Positions 3,368 to 42,531 of a stretch of DNA of 64,000 nucleotides are shown here, one piece after another; within the stretch, counting starts at the first letter, position 1; the number at the start of each line of letters is the position of its first letter. The notes under the pieces are model-generated. The model had not been told where the DNA came from. It was given only the letters and a program-made list of their open reading frames with translations, and did not search any database. Location: the IMG/VR virus record IMGVR_UViG_3300046737_000169, positions 9,765 through 73,764 of that record. The stretch is one strand, 5' to 3'. A program made the translations under genes and the position numbers. The DNA comes from a virus.

Positions 3368-6300
3368 ATGGCTGATAACCCATTTGCCAAATATGGCGGT
3401 GTCCTGGTAGCGGACGGCGAGGACGAGAACCCGTTTGCCAAGTACGGCGGCGTCAAGGTTGTAGGCCCGCCCAGGCCACATGTCGAGCCTACGCCAACCG
3501 GGCCTGCTCCTGCGCCCTGGATCACCGCCGATAAGGTTCCAGGCGCCGAGCTTACCGGGCTCCCCGGCGTACAGAAAGTCCCGGCTCCATACGATCTCGG
3601 CGGTCCTGGCCGAGGTCCAGGCGCCGCGCCGCCGATCAGCCCGCTCCAGCAGCCGACGATGCGCGCTGCGACACCGCGCTCGGTCCCTGATTACCTGTCC
3701 ACAGAAGGCATCACCGGCCTGCCGTACCCTGGCTCCGGCGGGGTGGTCCCGCCCGAGCCGTACGCTCCTCCTCTGCCCAAGGACGCCGGCCTCGGCGAGC
3801 GCGTCTGGAGAGGCGTAACCGACGAAGGTTGGACGCAAGTTCAAGACTCGATCGCTTCTGGAACCCAGGTGGTGGGGCGGAACATCGATCGAGCCTTTGG
3901 TCCTGGGATGATCCGCAACGCGGGCGATAGGCTCGCCCAGTACGGCGAGGAGTTGGAGTCTGGGCGCGAGTACACGCCGCCCGCCGTAAACCTGGAAGAC
4001 TGGCTCGCCAAACCCGATCGGTCTGTCGGCGACCTCGCGACGATGGTCATCGAGGGCGGCGCGAGAACCCTGCCCAACATGCTGGCAACGGTTGGAGCGG
4101 GCATGTTGGTTCCCGGCGGCGGCGCCGTACTCTCCTACCTGATGAACTCCGGGGAGATCTTCGATAGCCAGGTTAAGGAGGGAATCCACCCTGAGCAGGC
4201 GGCGAAAAACGCGGCGGTCTGGGGCGTCCCGGCCACGATGCTGGACTACTTCGTTCCAGGGGACATCATCAAGGCTATCAAGGCGAATCCCAAGCTGCCA
4301 GCGGAGCTTAAGAAGACCCTCTACAAGCGCGTAGTGGATTTCGCCAAGGGCACCGGCACCGAGATGTTCACCGAGGGCGCCCAGAACGTCAACCAGGATC
4401 TTGCCATGTCGCAGGCGACCGGGAAGCCGATGGACTGGCGGAAGACGGGCGTAGGGGCCGCCGAGGCCGCGCTCACGGCGGCCGGCCCTGGCGCTGTCGG
4501 CCATGTGATGGAGAGCGTCGGCGAGCGCACGCCCGCCCTGGACGACGTATTGGGCGGCGGCGAACTGGCCGACTACATGCGGAAACGGCAGGAGGCCGGT
4601 TTCCAGCCTCTGGAGCAGCCGCAGCCGGAGGACGACGGCGGAACGCCTCCTCCTCCAGGAGCGCCTCCCGGTGCTCCCCCAGGAGCGCCTCCTGGGGCAC
4701 CTCCCGGCGCGCCACCGCCAGGCGCAGGCCCGTTCCCGCCTCTCCATACGCAACCGCCGCCAACCGAGCCTGGAACGATACCGACGACCGAGCCTGGGGC
4801 TCCCGACCAGACACTGCCTCCCGAGACGACGCCCGGCACCGGCGAGGCGCCTCCCCCGCCCCCTCCGGTACTGCAGGGCGAAGAGCTCTACCAGGCCGCG
4901 ACCGCCCACGTTGCCGACATCGCCGGGATCGAAGCGCCCGAGCTTGCCGCGGCGCTGGGTGTTACGCCGAAAGATGCGCAGGCGGTCCTGGAGCGCATGG
5001 TGCAGGAGGGCGCGTTCACTCCCAAGGTTCTCAAGAACGGCGGCATCTCTTACGTCAATCTACGGCTGAAGCAGGAGCGCGGCGGCATATCGCCGGTCAC
5101 CTCGCCGATCCAGAAGGGCCAGGCCGAACCGCCGCCGCCTCCAGGACCAGGAGTGCAGCAGGAGCCGCCGCCGCTGCCGACGCAGCCACCAGCGCCACCG
5201 CAGGAAGACGTTTCCCGTGGAACAGAAGAAGACGTTCCGCCGCCCGAGGTAAGAACCGAGGAGCCGAAGCAGCCCGTCCCAGACGAGGCGGCGGCCAAGC
5301 GTCAGGCGTTCATCCGGAACCGCTACGCCAACAAGCCGGAGAGTTGGTATGGAACCCTCGAAGGCGAAGGCCCCCGGCCTGAGTGGAACGACTTTGTGGA
5401 GCGCTTCGCCCGCAGCGATTACGGCGCCGACCTCCAGGAGGAAGCCAAGCGGGCCATCCAGGAGTTCCGCGGGCTCGAGCCGCCGTCCGATTCAATTCAG
5501 CAAGGAAAGGAGCCAGGAGAACAAGGAACCGCACCAAAGCCGCCAGCATTGGAGCGGGCGCCGCCGCCTGCTCCAGCGGCTCCCGAGGAGAAGGAGCCCA
5601 TCCCGTCGAGCCCAGAGGGCCGGCCTGTTCCGCCGGAGCATCCCAACGCAAAGCGGGAAAAGGTCTTCACGACGGCAGGCCGCGAAGTGCCTATCCGCTA
5701 CGAGATCCGCGAGGCAGACGACCTCGTCAACTCGTTCGAGCCTAACTATCCGCAGGAGTATCAGCCGCGCGACACCGAGCGGATCGGCACCGAGCAGCGG
5801 GTCAAGCAGCGCCAGAGCGACATGAGGCCGGAGCTATTCGCCGAGTCTCCGCTCGCCTCCGATGGCGCCCCGATCGTCCTGCCGGACGGCACGGTCATCA
5901 CCAGGAACCACGGGTCAGAAGCGCTCAAGCGGAACTACCGCGAAGGCTCGCCCAAGACCGCCGAGTACAAGCAGTGGCTCGCAGACAACGCGGCCCGCTT
6001 TAACTATTCACCCGAGCAGATTGCCGGGATGCAGCAGCCCATCCTGGTCCGCGTGATGGAGGGGAATGTCCCGGTCAGTGAGGTGATCGAGTTTGCGGGC
6101 GAAGCCAACGCGCCCAGCGTAGCCAAAATGAGCGAGGCCGAAATCGCCCAGCACATGGCTAAGAGGATGACGGGCGCCGTGATGGAAGCGTTTCATCCGA
6201 CCGAGGACGGCAAGCCCAACATCGAGTTCGTACGGGAACTGATCAAGGGCCTCACCGTCGAGGACCAGGCTACCTTCATCGACCGCAACGGCAAGCTCTC

Positions 6301-9300
6301 GCAGGAGGGCGCCAAGATCGTCCGGAACGTCATCTTCGCCAAGGCATACCCTGACATGCGCGCGATCGAGCGCATGGCCGAGACCGAGGACGCCAGCCTC
6401 CTCAACGTGACCAAGGGGATGCTCTTCTCGGCACCCAAGGTTGCCATCTTCCAGGATCTGGTTGACCGCGGCGAGCGCTTCGATCTCGGCATTGGCCAGG
6501 ACATCATCGACGTACTCAACATCCTCGATCAGATCTCGCGCGAGGGCAGCAGCATTCCGGAATGGAAAGCCCAGCAGAGCATGTTCGGGCGCGATCCGTT
6601 CCTGATCCGGCTCCTCGACATCGTCTCGGAGAACACCAGATCGGCCAGGAGAATCTCCGATGTCTTCATAGCCTACGCGGAAGTAGCCGATGCGGCCGGC
6701 TCTCCCAAGCAGGAGACGATGTTCGGCCCGCCGGAGATTCCCGGCAAGTTGGAGATACTGGAGACTGCGCATGAACGGGCAAAAGAGCAATGGGCGGCCA
6801 AGCCTAAACGGCGAGACCCGGCGACCGGCAAACCCATCGAAGAAGGCGGGCCCGAGGAACAGGCGAAACCCGCAAGTGATGGAGTGGCTAAAGGACCGGA
6901 TGAAGACGTACGACCCGAAGTACTTCGGGAAGGACCAGCCAAACCAGGAGCCCCCGGCGCCCAGCAGCCTGGAGGAGTAGAAAAAGGAAAAGGCGTACGC
7001 CGCCGGGATCGGCGGCGAGCTATAGACGCCGATGGCAAGTGGCAGGATGACACCCTCGCCGATATCCCCGGATTGACCGCGCAGGCAACGTTCAAAGAGC
7101 CAGGGGTAAGCGGCGTCGTCTGGGTGAACTACGACGGGATGCGCGTAGTGGAAGCCGCGCTGAACGAGCCGCCGCTGAACGGCATCGCACTTGACGACGT
7201 GGGCGTGGTCGACCTCATGTCGGCGCTGGAAGCGCGCCTCGCCGAAGACGGCCTGTACGAGGAAGAGCGTGCCAAGCTCCAGGAGTTTCACGACCTACTG
7301 AGCAAGCACCGCGAGAAGGTAGGGCCCGGCGCCGGTGTCGAGATCGTCATGGCCGATCCCACGGTGAATGCAGACTTCATTGGGACGGCCCGCGAAGAGA
7401 AGCTGCACGCCGCCCAGCGTCAGGCCAAGCTCTCGGACGAGACCATCGAAGACCTGATGCTTGAGCCGGAGTTCCACGAGGCATGGGGATGGCTTGAGGA
7501 TCACGGCTATCCTGATATTGACGCCAAGGGCGCATTTGAAGAGATCACCGCCAAGGTGCTCGCCGGCCAGGCAATCGGGCTCACCGAGGCCCAACGCATC
7601 AAGGTTGCCAAAGCCTACCGCAATGCGCTGATCGCGGCGCATGGCGCCGAGGCTATCGTTTTATTCCGATACATCAAGTCAGGTGAAGTGAAGGAGACGT
7701 TCCGTGGCAGAGAAGCAAAAGAGGAAGGTGCTGGACGCGCCGCCGGAGTTCAGTCGGAAGGCGGTGTCGAACTTCAACGCGGCCCAACTGGCGGCCGCGA
7801 GGGCGAAGGAGAAGGGGGAGGACGAGGACGCGGCGTTCGAGAAGTCGCTGAAAGCGAGTTGGGCGGAAAGCGCGGGGAGCAAACCAAAATCGAATTAGAG
7901 GAGCAGCCCGACGACCGGGCGATCCTCCAGGGCGAGCGTCTGACCGCAGGCTTCAACGCTCCGCTCACGCCGGAAGAGAAGCGCGCCAAGCTCAAGCCCG
8001 CCAAGGTCGAGCAGACGAGTATGTTCGGCGGCGAGGAAGAGCCCGCCGAGCGCCAGGGCCGGCTGTTCGCCAAGCGCCAGCATGAGTTCGAGGCGCCGGG
8101 GCGCCTGGTCACCTCGAAGACAGCCGAGGAGTTCGGCTCCACCGACATCCTGATGCCCGGCGAGGGCTTCCGTTTCCCCGAGGCGGTGAAGCGGGCCGCC
8201 TCGCTGATCAGGAAGTACCCAGGCTTCCGCGGCAAAGGGCTCGCCAATCCCCAGGCGGTCATCGACGACTTCGTCAAGCAGATCCGCGAGAACCTGGTCT
8301 GGCTCCACGACAAGTACCGGGAGCAGCACGGCGATCTGATCAAGCGCGCCAAGCTCTGGTACGACGGCGGGCGCAAGATCGCCGAAGGCTTCGCCAAGGA
8401 GGCCGGCGTCAAGCCTCACCAGTCCGCCGCGGTCATCGCCGTCCTCTCGCCGAAAAAAGACTGGTTCATGAACGTGGACCTGGCGCGGCGCATTCATCAG
8501 TTCATGGGCATCGCCGACACCGTGAAGTGGTCCGACAAGATGGACGCCGGGTATCGGGCCATGCAGAAATCCAAGGCCAGGAGCGATGCCAGTTCCATCA
8601 AGAAGGCCGCTGCGAAAGGGAAGGTCTTCACTCCCAGCAAGACACTCCCTAACGCCTACCGGCGGATTCGCGGGAAGGCTTTCAGCGAGATCACCAACGC
8701 GCAGGACCGGGCCTACTATCTGCGCATGTGGGACGAGGGCCACAATAGCCGGGACTTCAATGTCCTGACGCCCGAGGGCGAGTCGCGCGGCGTGGCGCGC
8801 AACAAGAAGGACACCGCCAACTCGAAGGTGGTCTGGGCCGGGTACGACGCGATCCGGAAGGCCATGTCGGTTCTCGAGGACGGTTCGGTGGAGAACATCA
8901 GCAAGCGCCTGGGCAACCGGCACAAGGTGCGCTCGTTCTACAACAACATCCTCGATCCCAACTCGAAGAACCTCCACGTCACCATCGACACCCATGCGGT
9001 GTCGGCCGGGCTGCTGCGGCCGCTTGGCGAGAGCGACCCGGAGGTCAAGCACAACCTGGGCGCGCTCTCGGTGGTAACCGGCGAGGCTCCGACCTACGGC
9101 CTGTTCGCCGAAGGCACCAGGGACGCAGCCAAGGACCGCGATCTGATCGCCCGCGAGATGCAGTCGATTACCTGGGAGGCGGTGCGCGGCCTGTTTTCCG
9201 GCGGTTTCAAGAACGACGCCAACAGAAAAACGCTTGCGGCGCTCTGGCGGGACGTTGCGCAAGGTAAAATAACGGCTGATGAAGCGAGAGAGCAAATCTT

Positions 9301-12300
9301 CAAGCTCGCGGGAGGCATTGATCGACCAGCTTGGGCAGATCGACTCCCCGATTTTGGAGGACATGATCGAGGAGGGCGCGCCGCTGACGCGCGCGGAGTA
9401 CCTGGCGAGGGCGTACCCGGAGCAAGACCCGGAGGAGCCGATGGACTCCGAGCTAGAGGCCGAGATGCCGGCGCTGTTCGTACACCCGGACCTAAGGAAA
9501 GATCTCGGCCTGGACGACAGCGAAGCGTAAGAGGCGAGCCGGTCCCCACCGGCAAGACGGTCGAGGCCCAGACCCACGCCGCCACCGGCGGCAGATTCCC
9601 AGACATCATCCGCTTCTCCGATGACCTGAAGAGGGCGATGGATGGCCTCGTCTTCCACAGCGAAAGCAAAGCGGACCGGAAGGCCGGCAAGCTCGCGGCT
9701 GGTTTTAAAACCGGGACGTGGTACATCAACCGGCGCGGGCTGAGCCTGCTCGCCAAATGGACAGGCTCCGACATGGTCGCGGGAAGCTCGTTCCCGGCCA
9801 GTACGGTCCCCCTTCTCATCAAGGTAATCGACGAGGATATTGCGTGGATACAGGCCCGCAAGCCGCTCACCCCGCAGGGCCTCGCGGAGATAACCAGGCT
9901 CCGCGACCGGCTGGAAGCGTGGGAGAAACTCCCGAAGGCGACGCCGGACGAGTCGGTGAACTTCTCCTTCTTTGAGCAGGGCGAAAAACGGCACCCTGCC
10001 ATGCGCGCGACGATCTCCGAGGAGGCGATACATGGCTTCCAGCGCCTGGCGGCACTCAAGGACGCAACCATCGACGCCCTGATGGATACCGACCTGTTCA
10101 AGCGGGCCAAGCAGACGCTCCAGAGGAACGGTTTGTACGCCGGCAAAAACAACCGTTCGGTCCTCATGGAAATCACCGCGAAGATCCTGGCGGCCGATCC
10201 GGATTACGCCCCCCATATTCCCGAGTTGTTCCGCCTGCATATCGTCAAAGCCTACCGGGATGCGATCGTTGCCGAGCACGGCGAGGACGGGATCGTTGTT
10301 TTCCGGTACATCAAAAAAGGCAAGGAGAAGGATGTCTTCCAGGGGCGGATGCAACCGCCCATGCCCACCAGACCCGGTGCGCCTACGACCGGGCCGCGGG
10401 CACCGCCGCCGCCGCCACGGCCGTCTCCAACCGCTCAGCCGGTCTGGACGCCCACGGGCAGGGCGACGCAGGCGCCCTTCGACTTCACCAAGAAAGATCC
10501 TTACGCGGGCACTACGCCCTCGCCCACGGCCAAGCCGAGTACTTCGCCCACGCGCAAGCCGGTGCAGCTTCCGCTGTTCCAGCAACTGAAGAAGGCTGGC
10601 CTGTTCGCCAGGATTGTCGAAGCGGGCAGGCGGGCGGACGAGCGGCTCCGCAAGGCCGGCATCTACTCCGGCGCCACGCTGAGCGCCAACCGGTTCCTCG
10701 ATCCGAAAGTCATCCGCGACATGGCGATCTCGATCGCCGGCTCGGTTGCTCAGGGCGTCATCGATGCGAGGAACTTCACCTCGTCGATCACCGATAAGTT
10801 CGGCAGCGGCGCCCGGCGCGTAGCTCGTCAGGTGTACCGCCGCGCGCAGGGGCAGATGAGGCACGCCGCCTCGACCGGGACGCTGAACGCACGCACGCTC
10901 GGACCCAATGCCGTGCAGGCCGCCTCGATCGGCGTGCCGCCTCCCACGACGGCGGTCGCCACCACCACGCCGCAGCAGCAGGCCGCGGCCGCCCTGGATC
11001 AGCGCGAGAAGGAAATCTGGGAGCGGATGATGCCGGCCACCAAGACCGGCGAAGACAGCCTCCTTGAGAAGGGCAGGAAAGGCTGGCAGAGCTTCAAAGC
11101 CTTCTTCGACCGGCAGTACTTCCACCTGGCTCACGGCGCCAGGTTCGCCGAGCTCCGGCAGCGCCTCAACTTCGTGGCCAAGAGCCAGGGCACGTCCCAG
11201 CACAAAGCGGCCCAGGCCATCATCGATCAACTCGAGAAGCTCGACGAGAAGGAGTACATCCAGTTTTTGAAGGTGGTGGTCTACAACGACATGTGGGCGC
11301 GCGTCATGCAGCAGACCGCCGAGGGCACGCCGGTGCTCGACAAGGATCTGTGGTGGGGCATCAAGGACAAGCACGAGCTAGCCAATGTGCGGGCGAAGGT
11401 GCGCGCCGATGCCAGGGCCAATCCCAAGGTGACCGCCGCGCTCGATATGCGCCAGCAGATGTGGCCCAACATTCGCAAGGAATACATCGCCGCCATGAAG
11501 AAGGCCGGCGTCGACGTATCGAAGAGCATCAAGCGCAAAGACTACTTCCGCCATCGCGTCATGAAGCACCAGGATGCCAAGATGGCGGGCAAGGGCGGCG
11601 GCTCGCGCTTCAAGCTGCCTACCGCGCGCGGCTGGCTGAAGAAGGCCCAGGTCAACATCCACGACTACTCGCTCGACTACATCCGCTCGGAGTTTGAAGT
11701 CCTCAACGAGATGATGTACGACACCGCACGGGCCAAATTTATCGGCTGGCTGAAGGACGAGAGCGGACACAACATCGACAAGCAACTCATGCGCCAGGCG
11801 GCGGCGCACAACAAGGCCGTCATCATGCCGACCTTCGCGCGGATGGCGCGCTACTACAACCGCAAGAACCGCGGCCGCGGCGTCTCGCTGATGACCGCCG
11901 AGTCGATGTACCAGAAGATGATGCGGCTCAAGCCGCGCGATCCAAGCTGGCGTAAGCGCCTCACCATGCGCCTGGCCGGCGCCGAGTATGTGGGGAGCCT
12001 GGAGAAGGCGCTCAATACGTTCGCCAAGGACACCCACGACATCTACCGGGCCAACGATAAGGACCACTTCTACCTGGCGGCCACGATCCCTGACGCGCTG
12101 GCGCGGGCGATCGCCGCCAACGGCACCGGCCAGGTGCTCGACACCCAACTGAAGAAGATCCTGGCCAAGGGCCAGCGCCAGGGGCAGATGGTGCTCCCCA
12201 AGGAAGTGGTCAAGACCCTGCAGGAGTTCATGCAGGGGCCGACGAGCGATGTCGGCAAATTCGTCGACTCCGTTTCCAGGTGGCCTCTCAACAAGTGGAA

Positions 12301-14008
12301 GCAACTCAAACTGATTCATCCGGCAGGCGTCGTCAAGTACAACCTGCGCAACCTGTCGGGCGATCTGGAGCGCGTGCTGGCCGTCAATCCGCACGCCGTT
12401 GCGCATGTCGGCAAGTCCATGAGCGACATCTACGATTTCGTGAAGACCGGCAAGATGCCGAGTCCCGAGTTCCAGGAATGGTGGGAACGCGGAGGCATGG
12501 ACTCCAACCTCCAGGAGGCCGAGGCCGGCGACATCGACCGCCTCGCCAAGCTGAAACGCAAGCTGGTCGATCCCGATGTCGGTGCGGCGAAGAAGACGCT
12601 GCGCTTGGGCGTGAGGGGATGGAACGCTCTGTGGAGAGGGCTCCGCACCGGCACCAACATGCGGGAAGGCATCCTGCGCTATGCCACTTTCCTCGAGTAC
12701 CAGCAGCAGATCGCGGCGAGCACCTCTGGGCGCCCGAAGAACTTTGGCGCCTCGCGCCGCGAAGAAGTGATGGCGCTCAGGAGCCGCAACGATCGCGCCT
12801 ACAAACTGTCGAACGACCTGATGCTCGCCTACGACGAGGTGGGCGTGGCCGGCCAGGAACTCCGGAAAAGGTGGATTCCCTTCTGGAGCTTCCAGGAGCA
12901 GAACGCGCGGGCCTACAAGCGGATCATGGTCAACGCCTGGAAGGACGGCCGGACCTCCGCGTTGATCGGACGAGCCATCGTGGGGAAGACCGCGCGGGTA
13001 GGCGCCTACACGATGATGAAGCTCGCCTCGACCTCGATGCGGCTGCTGATGCTCAAGACGCTCACCGAGCTCTGGAACAACTACGCCTACGACGACGAGG
13101 AAGAGGATCTGCCGGAGAGCGTGCGCAAGTCGACCCATATCATCCTGGGCCGAGACTCGAACGGCAAGGTGCGAGTGTTCTCGCGCCTGGGCACCATCGA
13201 CGATCTGCTTGAGTGGGGCGGCCTGGATGCGGCGCCGTTCTATGCGCGCGAGTACATGAACGGGCGCATGGACTTCGCCGATCTGAAGGACCAGATGATC
13301 GGCCATCTCCTGCCCAGGCTGCGCGGCGGCCTTCCGGTTCCCAAGGCGGCCTTCAACAAGGTCTGGCAGAGCATCACTCCGTACATCAAAACGACGGCGG
13401 AACTGGGCTATGGCAAGACCTCCTATCCGGACTTCTTCAAACAGCGAGAGATTCGGGACACCGGCGAGTACATCGCCCGCGAGTTGAACCTGCTTGCCCC
13501 CTACAAAGGGTTGATCAAAAAGCCGCAGCCGTCGTTCTGGACGATGGACAAACTGTCCGAGTTCATGATCTACAAGTACGATCCGAACGAGACGCAGTAC
13601 AACTCGTTCCGCTACGACAAGGTGGCCAAGTGGGCGGTGGAGAACGGGCACGACACCTCGGGCGGCGGCATGTCGCTGAAGAAGTCGGCCGAGGCGCTCT
13701 ACGATATCCGCATGGCGATCCGCTACGACGACCAGAGCGCGCTGGCCGCCGGGATACAAGCCTACAAGGATGCGGACGGCACCAAGCAGAACCTGAAGAA
13801 ATCAATCCAGCGCCTGCATCCGCTGGGCTCGCTCACCAACAAGAAGCTGAAGAAGGAGTTCGAGGACTCCCTCACCGCCCAGGAAAAACGGCAACTCGAA
13901 AAGGCTGTAGCATTCTGGGAAGAGCAATTTCATTCCAAGGAAACCGAAGTGATGGATGTCGCGCAGTCCGAAGGTCTGCCGGCCAAGAAGAAGAAGGGGA
14001 AGAAATAA
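3368..14008 (+). CDS. giant polyvalent virion/ejection protein (DdrB-type ParB-like domain, two zincin-like repeats, HhH-glycosylase-like/DUF7178-like domain, LPD38-like C-terminus)
   Basis: 3546 aa; N-terminal NPFAKYGG x2; YEIREADDL..QPRD..DGAPIV (ParB-like, ~5680-6720); EEKLH..EEITAK and EEAIH..MEITAK repeats; WYD..AAVIAVLSP..VTIDTHA..MQSITW (~8200-9340); ITPYIKTTAEL in the C-terminal region. Confidence 0.8.
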   Translation: MADNPFAKYGGVLVADGEDENPFAKYGGVKVVGPPRPHVEPTPTGPAPAPWITADKVPGAELTGLPGVQKVPAPYDLGGPGRGPGAAPPISPLQQPTMRAATPRSVPDYLSTEGITGLPYPGSGGVVPPEPYAPPLPKDAGLGERVWRGVTDEGWTQVQDSIASGTQVVGRNIDRAFGPGMIRNAGDRLAQYGEELESGREYTPPAVNLEDWLAKPDRSVGDLATMVIEGGARTLPNMLATVGAGMLVPGGGAVLSYLMNSGEIFDSQVKEGIHPEQAAKNAAVWGVPATMLDYFVPGDIIKAIKANPKLPAELKKTLYKRVVDFAKGTGTEMFTEGAQNVNQDLAMSQATGKPMDWRKTGVGAAEAALTAAGPGAVGHVMESVGERTPALDDVLGGGELADYMRKRQEAGFQPLEQPQPEDDGGTPPPPGAPPGAPPGAPPGAPPGAPPPGAGPFPPLHTQPPPTEPGTIPTTEPGAPDQTLPPETTPGTGEAPPPPPPVLQGEELYQAATAHVADIAGIEAPELAAALGVTPKDAQAVLERMVQEGAFTPKVLKNGGISYVNLRLKQERGGISPVTSPIQKGQAEPPPPPGPGVQQEPPPLPTQPPAPPQEDVSRGTEEDVPPPEVRTEEPKQPVPDEAAAKRQAFIRNRYANKPESWYGTLEGEGPRPEWNDFVERFARSDYGADLQEEAKRAIQEFRGLEPPSDSIQQGKEPGEQGTAPKPPALERAPPPAPAAPEEKEPIPSSPEGRPVPPEHPNAKREKVFTTAGREVPIRYEIREADDLVNSFEPNYPQEYQPRDTERIGTEQRVKQRQSDMRPELFAESPLASDGAPIVLPDGTVITRNHGSEALKRNYREGSPKTAEYKQWLADNAARFNYSPEQIAGMQQPILVRVMEGNVPVSEVIEFAGEANAPSVAKMSEAEIAQHMAKRMTGAVMEAFHPTEDGKPNIEFVRELIKGLTVEDQATFIDRNGKLSQEGAKIVRNVIFAKAYPDMRAIERMAETEDASLLNVTKGMLFSAPKVAIFQDLVDRGERFDLGIGQDIIDVLNILDQISREGSSIPEWKAQQSMFGRDPFLIRLLDIVSENTRSARRISDVFIAYAEVADAAGSPKQETMFGPPEIPGKLEILETAHERAKEQWAAKPKRRDPATGKPIEEGGPEEQAKPASDGVAKGPDEDVRPEVLREGPAKPGAPGAQQPGGVEKGKGVRRRDRRRAIDADGKWQDDTLADIPGLTAQATFKEPGVSGVVWVNYDGMRVVEAALNEPPLNGIALDDVGVVDLMSALEARLAEDGLYEEERAKLQEFHDLLSKHREKVGPGAGVEIVMADPTVNADFIGTAREEKLHAAQRQAKLSDETIEDLMLEPEFHEAWGWLEDHGYPDIDAKGAFEEITAKVLAGQAIGLTEAQRIKVAKAYRNALIAAHGAEAIVLFRYIKSGEVKETFRGREAKEEGAGRAAGVQSEGGVELQRGPTGGREGEGEGGGRGRGVREVAESELGGKRGEQTKIELEEQPDDRAILQGERLTAGFNAPLTPEEKRAKLKPAKVEQTSMFGGEEEPAERQGRLFAKRQHEFEAPGRLVTSKTAEEFGSTDILMPGEGFRFPEAVKRAASLIRKYPGFRGKGLANPQAVIDDFVKQIRENLVWLHDKYREQHGDLIKRAKLWYDGGRKIAEGFAKEAGVKPHQSAAVIAVLSPKKDWFMNVDLARRIHQFMGIADTVKWSDKMDAGYRAMQKSKARSDASSIKKAAAKGKVFTPSKTLPNAYRRIRGKAFSEITNAQDRAYYLRMWDEGHNSRDFNVLTPEGESRGVARNKKDTANSKVVWAGYDAIRKAMSVLEDGSVENISKRLGNRHKVRSFYNNILDPNSKNLHVTIDTHAVSAGLLRPLGESDPEVKHNLGALSVVTGEAPTYGLFAEGTRDAAKDRDLIAREMQSITWEAVRGLFSGGFKNDANRKTLAALWRDVAQGKITADEAREQIFKLAGGIDRPAWADRLPDFGGHDRGGRAADARGVPGEGVPGARPGGADGLRARGRDAGAVRTPGPKERSRPGRQRSVRGEPVPTGKTVEAQTHAATGGRFPDIIRFSDDLKRAMDGLVFHSESKADRKAGKLAAGFKTGTWYINRRGLSLLAKWTGSDMVAGSSFPASTVPLLIKVIDEDIAWIQARKPLTPQGLAEITRLRDRLEAWEKLPKATPDESVNFSFFEQGEKRHPAMRATISEEAIHGFQRLAALKDATIDALMDTDLFKRAKQTLQRNGLYAGKNNRSVLMEITAKILAADPDYAPHIPELFRLHIVKAYRDAIVAEHGEDGIVVFRYIKKGKEKDVFQGRMQPPMPTRPGAPTTGPRAPPPPPRPSPTAQPVWTPTGRATQAPFDFTKKDPYAGTTPSPTAKPSTSPTRKPVQLPLFQQLKKAGLFARIVEAGRRADERLRKAGIYSGATLSANRFLDPKVIRDMAISIAGSVAQGVIDARNFTSSITDKFGSGARRVARQVYRRAQGQMRHAASTGTLNARTLGPNAVQAASIGVPPPTTAVATTTPQQQAAAALDQREKEIWERMMPATKTGEDSLLEKGRKGWQSFKAFFDRQYFHLAHGARFAELRQRLNFVAKSQGTSQHKAAQAIIDQLEKLDEKEYIQFLKVVVYNDMWARVMQQTAEGTPVLDKDLWWGIKDKHELANVRAKVRADARANPKVTAALDMRQQMWPNIRKEYIAAMKKAGVDVSKSIKRKDYFRHRVMKHQDAKMAGKGGGSRFKLPTARGWLKKAQVNIHDYSLDYIRSEFEVLNEMMYDTARAKFIGWLKDESGHNIDKQLMRQAAAHNKAVIMPTFARMARYYNRKNRGRGVSLMTAESMYQKMMRLKPRDPSWRKRLTMRLAGAEYVGSLEKALNTFAKDTHDIYRANDKDHFYLAATIPDALARAIAANGTGQVLDTQLKKILAKGQRQGQMVLPKEVVKTLQEFMQGPTSDVGKFVDSVSRWPLNKWKQLKLIHPAGVVKYNLRNLSGDLERVLAVNPHAVAHVGKSMSDIYDFVKTGKMPSPEFQEWWERGGMDSNLQEAEAGDIDRLAKLKRKLVDPDVGAAKKTLRLGVRGWNALWRGLRTGTNMREGILRYATFLEYQQQIAASTSGRPKNFGASRREEVMALRSRNDRAYKLSNDLMLAYDEVGVAGQELRKRWIPFWSFQEQNARAYKRIMVNAWKDGRTSALIGRAIVGKTARVGAYTMMKLASTSMRLLMLKTLTELWNNYAYDDEEEDLPESVRKSTHIILGRDSNGKVRVFSRLGTIDDLLEWGGLDAAPFYAREYMNGRMDFADLKDQMIGHLLPRLRGGLPVPKAAFNKVWQSITPYIKTTAELGYGKTSYPDFFKQREIRDTGEYIARELNLLAPYKGLIKKPQPSFWTMDKLSEFMIYKYDPNETQYNSFRYDKVAKWAVENGHDTSGGGMSLKKSAEALYDIRMAIRYDDQSALAAGIQAYKDADGTKQNLKKSIQRLHPLGSLTNKKLKKEFEDSLTAQEKRQLEKAVAFWEEQFHSKETEVMDVAQSEGLPAKKKKGKK
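6771..6980 (+). CDS. nested +1-frame small protein (69 aa) overprinted in the giant gene
   Basis: GGAG 7 nt before ATG; main-frame codons switch to A/T-ending here; C-terminal half MEWLKDRMKTYDPKYFGKD is protein-like. Confidence 0.5.
   Translation: MNGQKSNGRPSLNGETRRPANPSKKAGPRNRRNPQVMEWLKDRMKTYDPKYFGKDQPNQEPPAPSSLEE
7704..7898 (+). CDS. nested +1-frame small helical protein (64 aa) overprinted in the giant gene
   Basis: AAGGAG at 7691-7696, 7 nt before GTG; GC3 bias shifts to the +1 frame; main frame becomes a G/R/E-rich linker. Confidence 0.7.
   Translation: MAEKQKRKVLDAPPEFSRKAVSNFNAAQLAAARAKEKGEDEDAAFEKSLKASWAESAGSKPKSN
9279..9530 (+). CDS. nested +1-frame small acidic protein (83 aa) overprinted in the giant gene
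   Basis: Natural-looking DSPILEDMIEEGAPLTRAEYLARAYPEQDPEEPMDSELEAEMP with strong GC3; main frame is full of rare CGA/AGA/GGA codons; TAAAAT at 9265-9270. Confidence 0.75.
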   Translation: MKRESKSSSSREALIDQLGQIDSPILEDMIEEGAPLTRAEYLARAYPEQDPEEPMDSELEAEMPALFVHPDLRKDLGLDDSEA

Positions 14009-42351: not shown

Positions 42352-42531
42352 CTAGAACAACTTCGGCTGCGGGTCCGATACCGGAGCCGCGAACAAACCG
42401 CCCTGCTCGACGCGAGCGCGCCGCAGCTTGCGGCGCTTCTCTTCCGGCGTCAAGGGACAGTCAAAACCAGCCGTCAACTGCTCGCCCAGGAGGCGCGCTT
42501 GGTCGTCCGGCTGCTCTTCTATCTCGATCAC
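42352..42531 (-). CDS. 59-aa early protein with twin QxxLF motifs, paralog of a segment of the giant virion protein
   Basis: GAGGTGAA RBS then GTG; translates MIEIEEQPDDQARLLGEQLTAGFDCPLTPEEKRRKLRRARVEQGGLFAAPVSDPQPKLF. Confidence 0.85.
   Translation of the reverse strand: MIEIEEQPDDQARLLGEQLTAGFDCPLTPEEKRRKLRRARVEQGGLFAAPVSDPQPKLF

Follow-up and report, generated by a model that had tools for sequence, protein, structure and literature searches.

One giant gene of a virus appears to hide up to three smaller genes within its own coding sequence. The DNA analysed here, referred to as the window, is a stretch of 64,000 nucleotides (nt) covering positions 9,765 to 73,764 of the IMG/VR virus record IMGVR_UViG_3300046737_000169, a viral contig of 73.8 kb that is rated complete by CheckV. 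The window contains a gene at 3368-14008 for a polyvalent protein of 3546 amino acids (aa), in which a ddrB-ParB-like domain, a repeated domain of about 200 aa and a DUF7178 module are separated by linkers. Three small open reading frames (ORFs), named n1 (6771-6980), n2 (7704-7898) and n3 (9279-9530), all lie in the +1 frame of this gene, within the stretches that encode the linkers. Taken as a whole, the results are best explained by a giant gene that is dual-coding at three inter-domain linkers, each carrying a small +1 gene, and we consider this explanation likely. Judged from sequence, n3 is a true gene and belongs to a large undescribed family, found adjoining, nested in the tail or nested in the linker behind DUF7178; n2 is well supported as a clade-restricted gene, and n1 is probably a gene as well. 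In DNA phages, long overlaps between genes on the same strand are considered rare, and gene callers exclude them.

The n3 ORF was studied across 80 DUF7178 loci from IMG/VR, 81 with the window, using a profile hidden Markov model (HMM) made from 12 seed +1 peptides, the window's n3 among them. The HMM matched one ORF per locus in 76 of the 81 loci at 38-108 bits, with one locus at 17.9. All of these matches are in the +1 frame and directly at the end of DUF7178, in loci whose GC content at third codon positions (GC3) spans 0.16 to 0.94. The window's n3, itself a seed, scores 103 bits and can be aligned from end to end with 42 others; the core motif of the family is ..G.DP.(L/V)..L.K...P(L/V)TRENYL..AYP.G.P....E.E..LP. 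When the same nucleotides of 55 held-out loci were read in each frame, the median score was 57 bits in the +1 frame, 28 in the main frame and 25 in the +2 frame, and the main frame over n3 is therefore conserved no better than a non-coding frame. The entropy per position shows main-frame constraint across the first ~20 codons of n3, which overlap the conserved C-terminus of DUF7178. Beyond the end of DUF7178 there is a sharp switch to constraint in the +1 frame, with +1 position 3 the most variable and position 2 the least.

The start of n3 is conserved together with its peptide. An ATG is kept at fixed distances in 67 of 69 distinct copies, many of which have GGAGG or GAGG 5-7 nt before it, and in some copies the ATG comes immediately after a +1-frame stop, for example ...ggaggaataaATG. 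The surrounding layout takes several forms among the 73 distinct loci. In 18 of them the DUF7178 ORF terminates immediately behind its conserved C-terminus, and the n3 core is free-standing, with many main-frame stops along its length. The DUF7178 ORF ends 23-53 nt past the n3 stop in 35 loci (and 206 nt past it in one more), with n3 nested in a C-terminal tail, while in the remaining 19, the window included, the DUF7178 frame continues into further domains.

Beyond these loci, the n3 profile was compared with 1.84 billion predicted proteins and returned 2108 cluster representatives at E<=1e-3, of which 538 reach E<=1e-10; most are 55-120 aa long. One of them (P0217) consists of two tandem n3 domains and another (P0249) has n3 fused to 125 aa of other sequence, and neither carries a DUF7178 part. 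Ankyrin-repeat proteins among the matches were read as summed weak repeat matches, and no relationship is claimed for them. The AlphaFold2 model of n3 is a small helical domain with a predicted local distance difference test (pLDDT) score of 78-89 in its core, for which Foldseek found no look-alike in the PDB. A tblastn search of n3 against GenBank phages gave no match; iddB of phage P1 lies on the opposite strand and was set aside as irrelevant. Searches of Pfam, PHROGs and NCBIfam returned no family for n1, n2, n3 or any of their relatives. As an observation apart, Rhodobacteraceae phage LS06-2018-MD07 (L247) has a weak, unannotated n3-like ORF at 2498-2740 (E 5e-4), in the +1 frame of a giant coding sequence that is named 'methyltransferase' in GenBank.

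The n2 peptide is conserved in the +1 frame of three related contigs of ~73 kb and in two predicted small proteins, giving a set of six distinct sequences that are 48-63% identical and share 18 invariant columns. All four DNA copies (the window, L003, L004 and L005) preserve the start signal AAGGAG-N7-GTG, including L005, where the upstream context differs and a Pro-rich linker stands in place of the ~200-aa repeated domain. Within n2, 32, 25 and 31 columns vary at +1 positions 1, 2 and 3, and variation is thus lowest at the third position of the main frame; the preceding 56 codons, with 23, 11 and 40 variable columns at main positions 1, 2 and 3, vary most at that position. No n2 is present behind the second copy of the repeat in the window or behind further copies in L003-L005. 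Since n2 occurs without the repeat upstream in L005, and repeats occur without n2, n2 seems to travel with the start of the DUF7178 module. The ESM Atlas gave no usable match for n1 or n2.

The repeated domain itself had been called 'zincin-like' in the preliminary description of this DNA. That label found no confirmation, as neither copy has a Pfam match at E<=1 and no HExxH was seen in the translation of aa 1245-1445. Two copies of the domain are also found in the relatives L003 and L004, and single-protein locus searches with it found nothing. In the window, copy 1 (7100-7702) has a nested ORF behind it and copy 2 (9707-10357) has none.

The n1 ORF belongs to a setting that was surveyed in 160 ddrB-ParB loci, drawn in two sets of 80 from IMG/VR and from JGI metagenomes; some contigs are present in both sets. 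Two families of +1 peptides were found directly behind ddrB-ParB in a search space of ~15,000 six-frame ORFs: family A (..TLEK.RKL..RL..NP.MRRA..AALKAMGLP), with 24 and 26 matches in the two sets, and family B (..LRFS.TRP.VV..L...M..), with 16 and 15. Every match is in the +1 frame at the same position, except for one marginal family A match in a main-frame ORF (E 0.006). The families occur in about half of the loci (~80 of 160), and all 15 copies inspected have a Shine-Dalgarno (SD) sequence and an ATG. In copies of the n1 class the main-frame third positions are the least variable, which is the same pattern as in n2 and n3 but weaker, and all the copies are fully nested. The nearest relative of the window's n1, in L083, is a member of family B (E 4e-4) and has the same start context: ctggagacggcctATG. 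The two align in the +1 frame with a score of 61 and one gap on each side (shuffle p<0.0005); their main-frame alignment is gappy, with a score of 59 (p 0.026). The window's n1 is thus placed, with fair confidence, as a real gene and a weak member of the class nested behind ddrB-ParB, and n2 and n1 are probably genes of the same kind as n3.

Family A was also noted in its own right as a set of conserved basic proteins of 50-65 aa (L094:3636-3794, L128:3669-3839 and ~50 other ParB loci) that has no entry in Pfam, PHROGs or NCBIfam. In many of the loci that were read, family A is in turn followed by a second ParB/Srx-like domain, of the classical type.

The three nested ORFs share a marked composition. 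Main-frame GC3 falls from 0.85-0.95 to 0.36-0.50 across 6750-6990, 7600-7850 and 9190-9480, and over the same stretches the GC content at main position 1, where the +1 frame has its third codon position, reaches up to 0.9. Against a null in which synonymous codons were resampled and the main-frame protein was kept, the drop in GC3 has a z of -5.7 for n1, -5.9 for n2 and -8.7 for n3. Read in the +1 frame, the three have a codon usage (log frequency per codon) of -3.85 to -3.94, near the -3.70 of real frames and well away from the -4.69 of ordinary +1 frames. The 219 nested codons hold 11 of the 19 CGA, 5 of the 15 AGA and 24 of the 47 GGA codons of the whole gene. In these respects the preliminary description was borne out: it had placed the three ORFs in the +1 frame of the 3546-aa gene, had seen the GC3 bias move to that frame over each of them and CGA, AGA and GGA gather there, and had reported SD sequences 7 nt upstream of two ORFs, which prove to be n1 and n2. 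Its proposal that the ORFs are genes which annotation misses can be carried further, as conserved and separately started genes; for n3 the case is very strong, while n2 has a good one and n1 a moderate one. The idea that each domain travels with its own partner fared unevenly, since it stood for n3 with DUF7178 (76 of 81 loci), applied in only about half of the loci to n1-type genes with ddrB-ParB, and failed for n2 with the 'zincin-like' domain.

The phage is known from soil and sediment metagenomes. Contigs from a different soil study are identical to the window over all three ORFs, and assembly indels or an assembly artefact are therefore not the cause of the pattern. A sediment variant (X3) that is 1-2% diverged, and whose coverage of the nested stretches lies outside n1, has 1 difference in 394 nested bases versus 30 in 1622 bases elsewhere (Fisher p 0.02). 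Outside the nested ORFs, 20 of its 21 listed differences are synonymous in the main frame; the sole nested change, at 9402, turns P into H in the main frame and L into M in n3. Pairwise identity in alternative frames was set aside as an uninformative test, because the strong shared codon bias makes every frame seem conserved. Elsewhere in the giant gene, the Pro-rich linkers at 4583-4793, 5123-5258 and 5468-5603 have low main-frame GC3 and open +1 frames, and a 132-codon +1 ORF at 4671-5069, which overlaps a main-frame domain, looks spurious.

Modelling offers a view of what n3 may do. The DUF7178 module was predicted by AlphaFold2 with a pLDDT of 87.9, and its model was compared by VIA-align with 48,161 PDB representatives. 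Among the top 23 matches, 20 are HhH-GPD DNA glycosylases or the related queuine-salvage DUF2419 enzyme, the best being Tm1821 (3n0u; Z 9.2, root-mean-square deviation 3.6 Å, 184 residues aligned); a Z of this size is middling for helical proteins, and the assignment draws its weight from how consistent the list is. Foldseek found nothing for the module in the PDB, its profile gave only chance matches to solved structures, and no profile match to solved glycosylases or to the Pfam family HhH-GPD was obtained. The invariant motifs of DUF7178 include SP, HK and DTH, of which HK and DTH may be reminiscent of K120 and the VDTH motif in endonuclease III. By this structural comparison of a model, DUF7178 would have the two-lobed helical fold of the HhH-GPD glycosylases.

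When n3 and DUF7178 were modelled together, the interaction prediction score from aligned errors (ipSAE) was 0.78 (0.81, 0.78 and 0.77 in the separate runs), and the best of three controls reached 0.08. This mark was reached by 58 of 80 solved complexes and by 2 of 110 mismatched pairs, figures that apply here only approximately, since the modelling used our own alignments. The runs have at least 88% of their contacts in common, with a partner pLDDT of at least 78. The best-defined contacts join P24-I25 and A45-Y46-P47, the most conserved residues of n3, to domain residues 286-295; other predicted contacts involve domain residues 156-157, 307-312 and 336, beside the invariant SP, HK and DTH motifs. 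No related solved structure or complex was found by sequence, and the modelled complex is therefore unlikely to echo a known structure. The modelling of domain with nested protein, which the preliminary description had put forward, thus favours a pairing in which n3 is predicted to bind DUF7178 on a surface that includes residues beside the invariant HK and DTH.

Several observations weigh against dual coding at all three linkers and against the pairing built upon it. The openness of the +1 frame is expected by chance once the main-frame protein is given (P = 0.67, 0.60 and 0.75 for n1, n2 and n3 under the synonymous resampling), because a stop in the +1 frame can arise only where main codon position 2 is T, which is scarce there in hydrophilic linkers; ORF openness was accordingly rejected as evidence for nested genes. 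A look-up of RNA runs listed none with this stretch. The window's n1 was not recovered by leave-one-out HMMs, and phmmer, which ranks its positional equivalents in L083/L084 and L236/L239 highest, gives them no significance (E 0.23-0.69). As for n2, it was found in only a handful of related contigs. The SD sequence of the window's n3 is weak and distant (AAGG, 14 nt upstream), DUF7178 occurs without n3 in the cultured Roseobacter phage CRP-738 (gp40) and in the AT-rich loci L078-L082, and one predicted protein of 190 aa (P0305) has the C-terminus of DUF7178 joined in frame to n3. This protein fits equally well a frameshift product, a natural fusion, which would give Rosetta-stone support to the pairing, or a sequencing error. 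The strictly conserved residues of DUF7178 are not enriched at the interface (~6 of 38 versus 78 of 402 overall), and both the binding and the inhibition proposed for n3 are model-based.

Some of these points are what an artefact of composition would predict, in which the linkers use rare A-ending codons (GGA, CGA, AGA, GAA), for instance to slow translation, and the ORFs are not genes. The chance openness of the +1 frame and the want of a significant relative for the window's n1 by HMM or phmmer both suit it, and Pro-rich linkers of the same gene (e.g. 4583-4793) dip in GC3 too, which means that a GC3 dip alone is no proof of a nested gene. However, codon choice in a linker cannot account for families of +1 peptides conserved over a GC3 of 0.16-0.94 while the main frame is conserved no better than +2, for a conserved ATG and SD, for an n3 that stands free in 18 loci, or for thousands of predicted n3 homologues and a confident n3 fold. 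Such an artefact is very improbable overall, being excluded for n3 and n2 and possible for n1 alone. Programmed +1 frameshifting is also improbable as an account of the three linkers. Ribosomes would here shift out of the main frame once a domain is complete and so produce the domain with a short alternative C-terminal module, which agrees with selection passing from the main to the +1 frame precisely where the domain ends, with the in-frame fusion in P0305 and with an internal SD-like element just upstream; the prfB frameshift has such an element just upstream as well. Yet a frameshift needs no start codon, and the n3 ATG is held at fixed distances in nearly all copies, often after a +1 stop. 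The n1 and n2 homologues likewise keep an SD with ATG or GTG, and the n3-family members P0217 and P0249 have no DUF7178 part in the same protein.

If the nested ORFs are separate genes, their role can be read in more than one way. In the preliminary description the partners would silence their domains during late expression and assembly and stay behind on injection, much like a toxin-immunity array. The function that we prefer, though only tentatively, is that of a cognate inhibitor or chaperone: n3, translated from the same late mRNA, would keep the DNA-directed domain quiet or folded until packaging. A purely structural or assembly role for n3 has about the same likelihood. A wider reading, in which the small proteins are real and non-inhibitory, serving as helpers of assembly, packaging or ejection or as stable activity subunits present in the capsid with the giant protein, seems somewhat less likely than not. 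It draws on the fact that the complex model speaks to binding and not to the effect of binding, on the lack of enrichment of strictly conserved residues at the interface, on the place of the gene in a virion module, and on n1 and n2 being basic, unlike DNA mimics. On the other side, n3 is strongly acidic in most members of its family (median isoelectric point (pI) 4.6), the model places it beside the invariant HK and DTH of the glycosylase-like fold, and the picture would, by analogy, resemble DNA-mimic glycosylase inhibitors such as Ugi.

Dual coding of the linkers would work in a simple manner. Each nested gene would be started from its own ribosome-binding site and start codon, and the frame of the giant protein over the linkers would be a little-constrained hydrophilic filler that need only stay open. 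The range of n3 layouts suggests an origin by read-through, in which a pre-existing partner gene downstream was read through in another frame as the DUF7178 gene lengthened, and the whole was then fused into polyvalent proteins. The linker would then be the younger, overprinted frame and the structured small protein the older one. A broader and still more tentative extension is that polyvalent virion and conjugation proteins are, as a rule, built by reading through small partner genes. Many linkers would be dual-coding, and each effector domain would have a hidden cognate partner (an inhibitor, chaperone or adaptor) made from the same mRNA, with the n3 series as a snapshot of the process and the n1 types and n2 as independent instances.

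Same-strand nested genes are already known as a kind. In phage lambda, the small gene Rz1 lies wholly in the +1 frame of the larger same-strand gene Rz, has its own start, and the products of the two bind each other. The genes described here are similar in being embedded in the +1 frame of the same strand with their own starts, and in partner binding, which is predicted for n3. They differ in that three unrelated nested genes occur in one gene of 10.6 kb, each in an inter-domain linker, in that the giant frame would be an unconstrained filler and not a functional domain, and in that the products are soluble proteins with no part in lysis. Ugi and p56 are DNA-mimic inhibitors of uracil-DNA glycosylase (UDG). 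Like them, n3 is a small and very acidic phage protein, predicted to lie near the catalytic motifs of a domain with a DNA-glycosylase fold; no sequence or fold similarity between them and n3 was found, however, and the predicted target of n3 is the phage's own HhH-GPD-like domain and not a host UDG, with inhibition suggested by analogy.

The giant gene itself resembles the polyvalent proteins that Iyer et al. 2017 (PMC5512222) described from phages and conjugative elements in combining ddrB-ParB with many domains in one virion-module polypeptide. That founding paper describes no nested genes, and the words 'overlap' and 'frameshift' are absent from it. A full-text literature search for DUF7178, and for nested or overlapping genes with polyvalent proteins, returned nothing relevant. 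What is new is the setting in polyvalent-protein linkers, the presence of several nested genes in one gene, the n3 family and its gradation of layouts between free-standing and nested. The n3 family alone, with more than 2000 predicted cluster representatives, is absent from the family databases named above, and the profiles built here could let annotation pipelines recover such nested genes. If the partners regulate injected effector domains, they would be a missing part of how polyvalent proteins stay harmless to the phage, and perhaps also a part of polyvalent-protein assembly and packaging. The range of layouts moreover offers a concrete route for the origin of multi-domain giants and of disordered linkers.

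Table. Features of the giant gene and its nested ORFs, in window coordinates.
Feature	Position	Strand	Remarks
n1, 69-aa basic protein, pI 10.1	6771..6980	+ (+1 frame)	nested in linker 1; probable gene
GGAG, Shine-Dalgarno-like site	6760..6763	+	7 nt before n1 ATG 6771
n2, 64-aa protein, pI 9.4, GTG start	7704..7898	+ (+1 frame)	nested in linker 2; clade-restricted
AAGGAG, Shine-Dalgarno site	7691..7696	+	7 nt before n2 GTG 7704
n3, 83-aa acidic protein, pI 4.1, net charge -14	9279..9530	+ (+1 frame)	overlaps the last DUF7178 codons and all of linker 3
Giant gene, 3546-aa polyvalent virion-module protein	3368..14008	+	ORF list, Pfam ddrB-ParB and DUF7178
ddrB-ParB-like domain with helical extension, main frame	5627..6796	+	aa 754-1143
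~200-aa repeated domain, copy 1 (previously 'zincin-like')	7100..7702	+	internal repeat; matches in L003-L005
DUF7178 module, main frame, HhH-GPD DNA-glycosylase-like fold (predicted)	7985..9367	+	aa 1540-2000
~200-aa repeated domain, copy 2	9707-10357	+	internal repeat

Regarding the rest of the giant gene, its ddrB-ParB domain is matched by PF18763 at aa 771-897 (E 1.5e-25), and a match to phrog_5143 covers aa 754-1143. The relatives of the 3546-aa protein are giant proteins with ArdC-N, LPD38 and similar polyvalent domains. Directly downstream of the gene lie tail-fibre-like genes, whose proteins match tail-fibre PHROGs. A segment of the main frame that sits directly behind n2 (aa 1508-1567, at 7889-8068) has a free-standing copy in the early region, a 59-aa gene at 42352-42531 on the minus strand, with 67% identity over 48 aa (E 1e-21).

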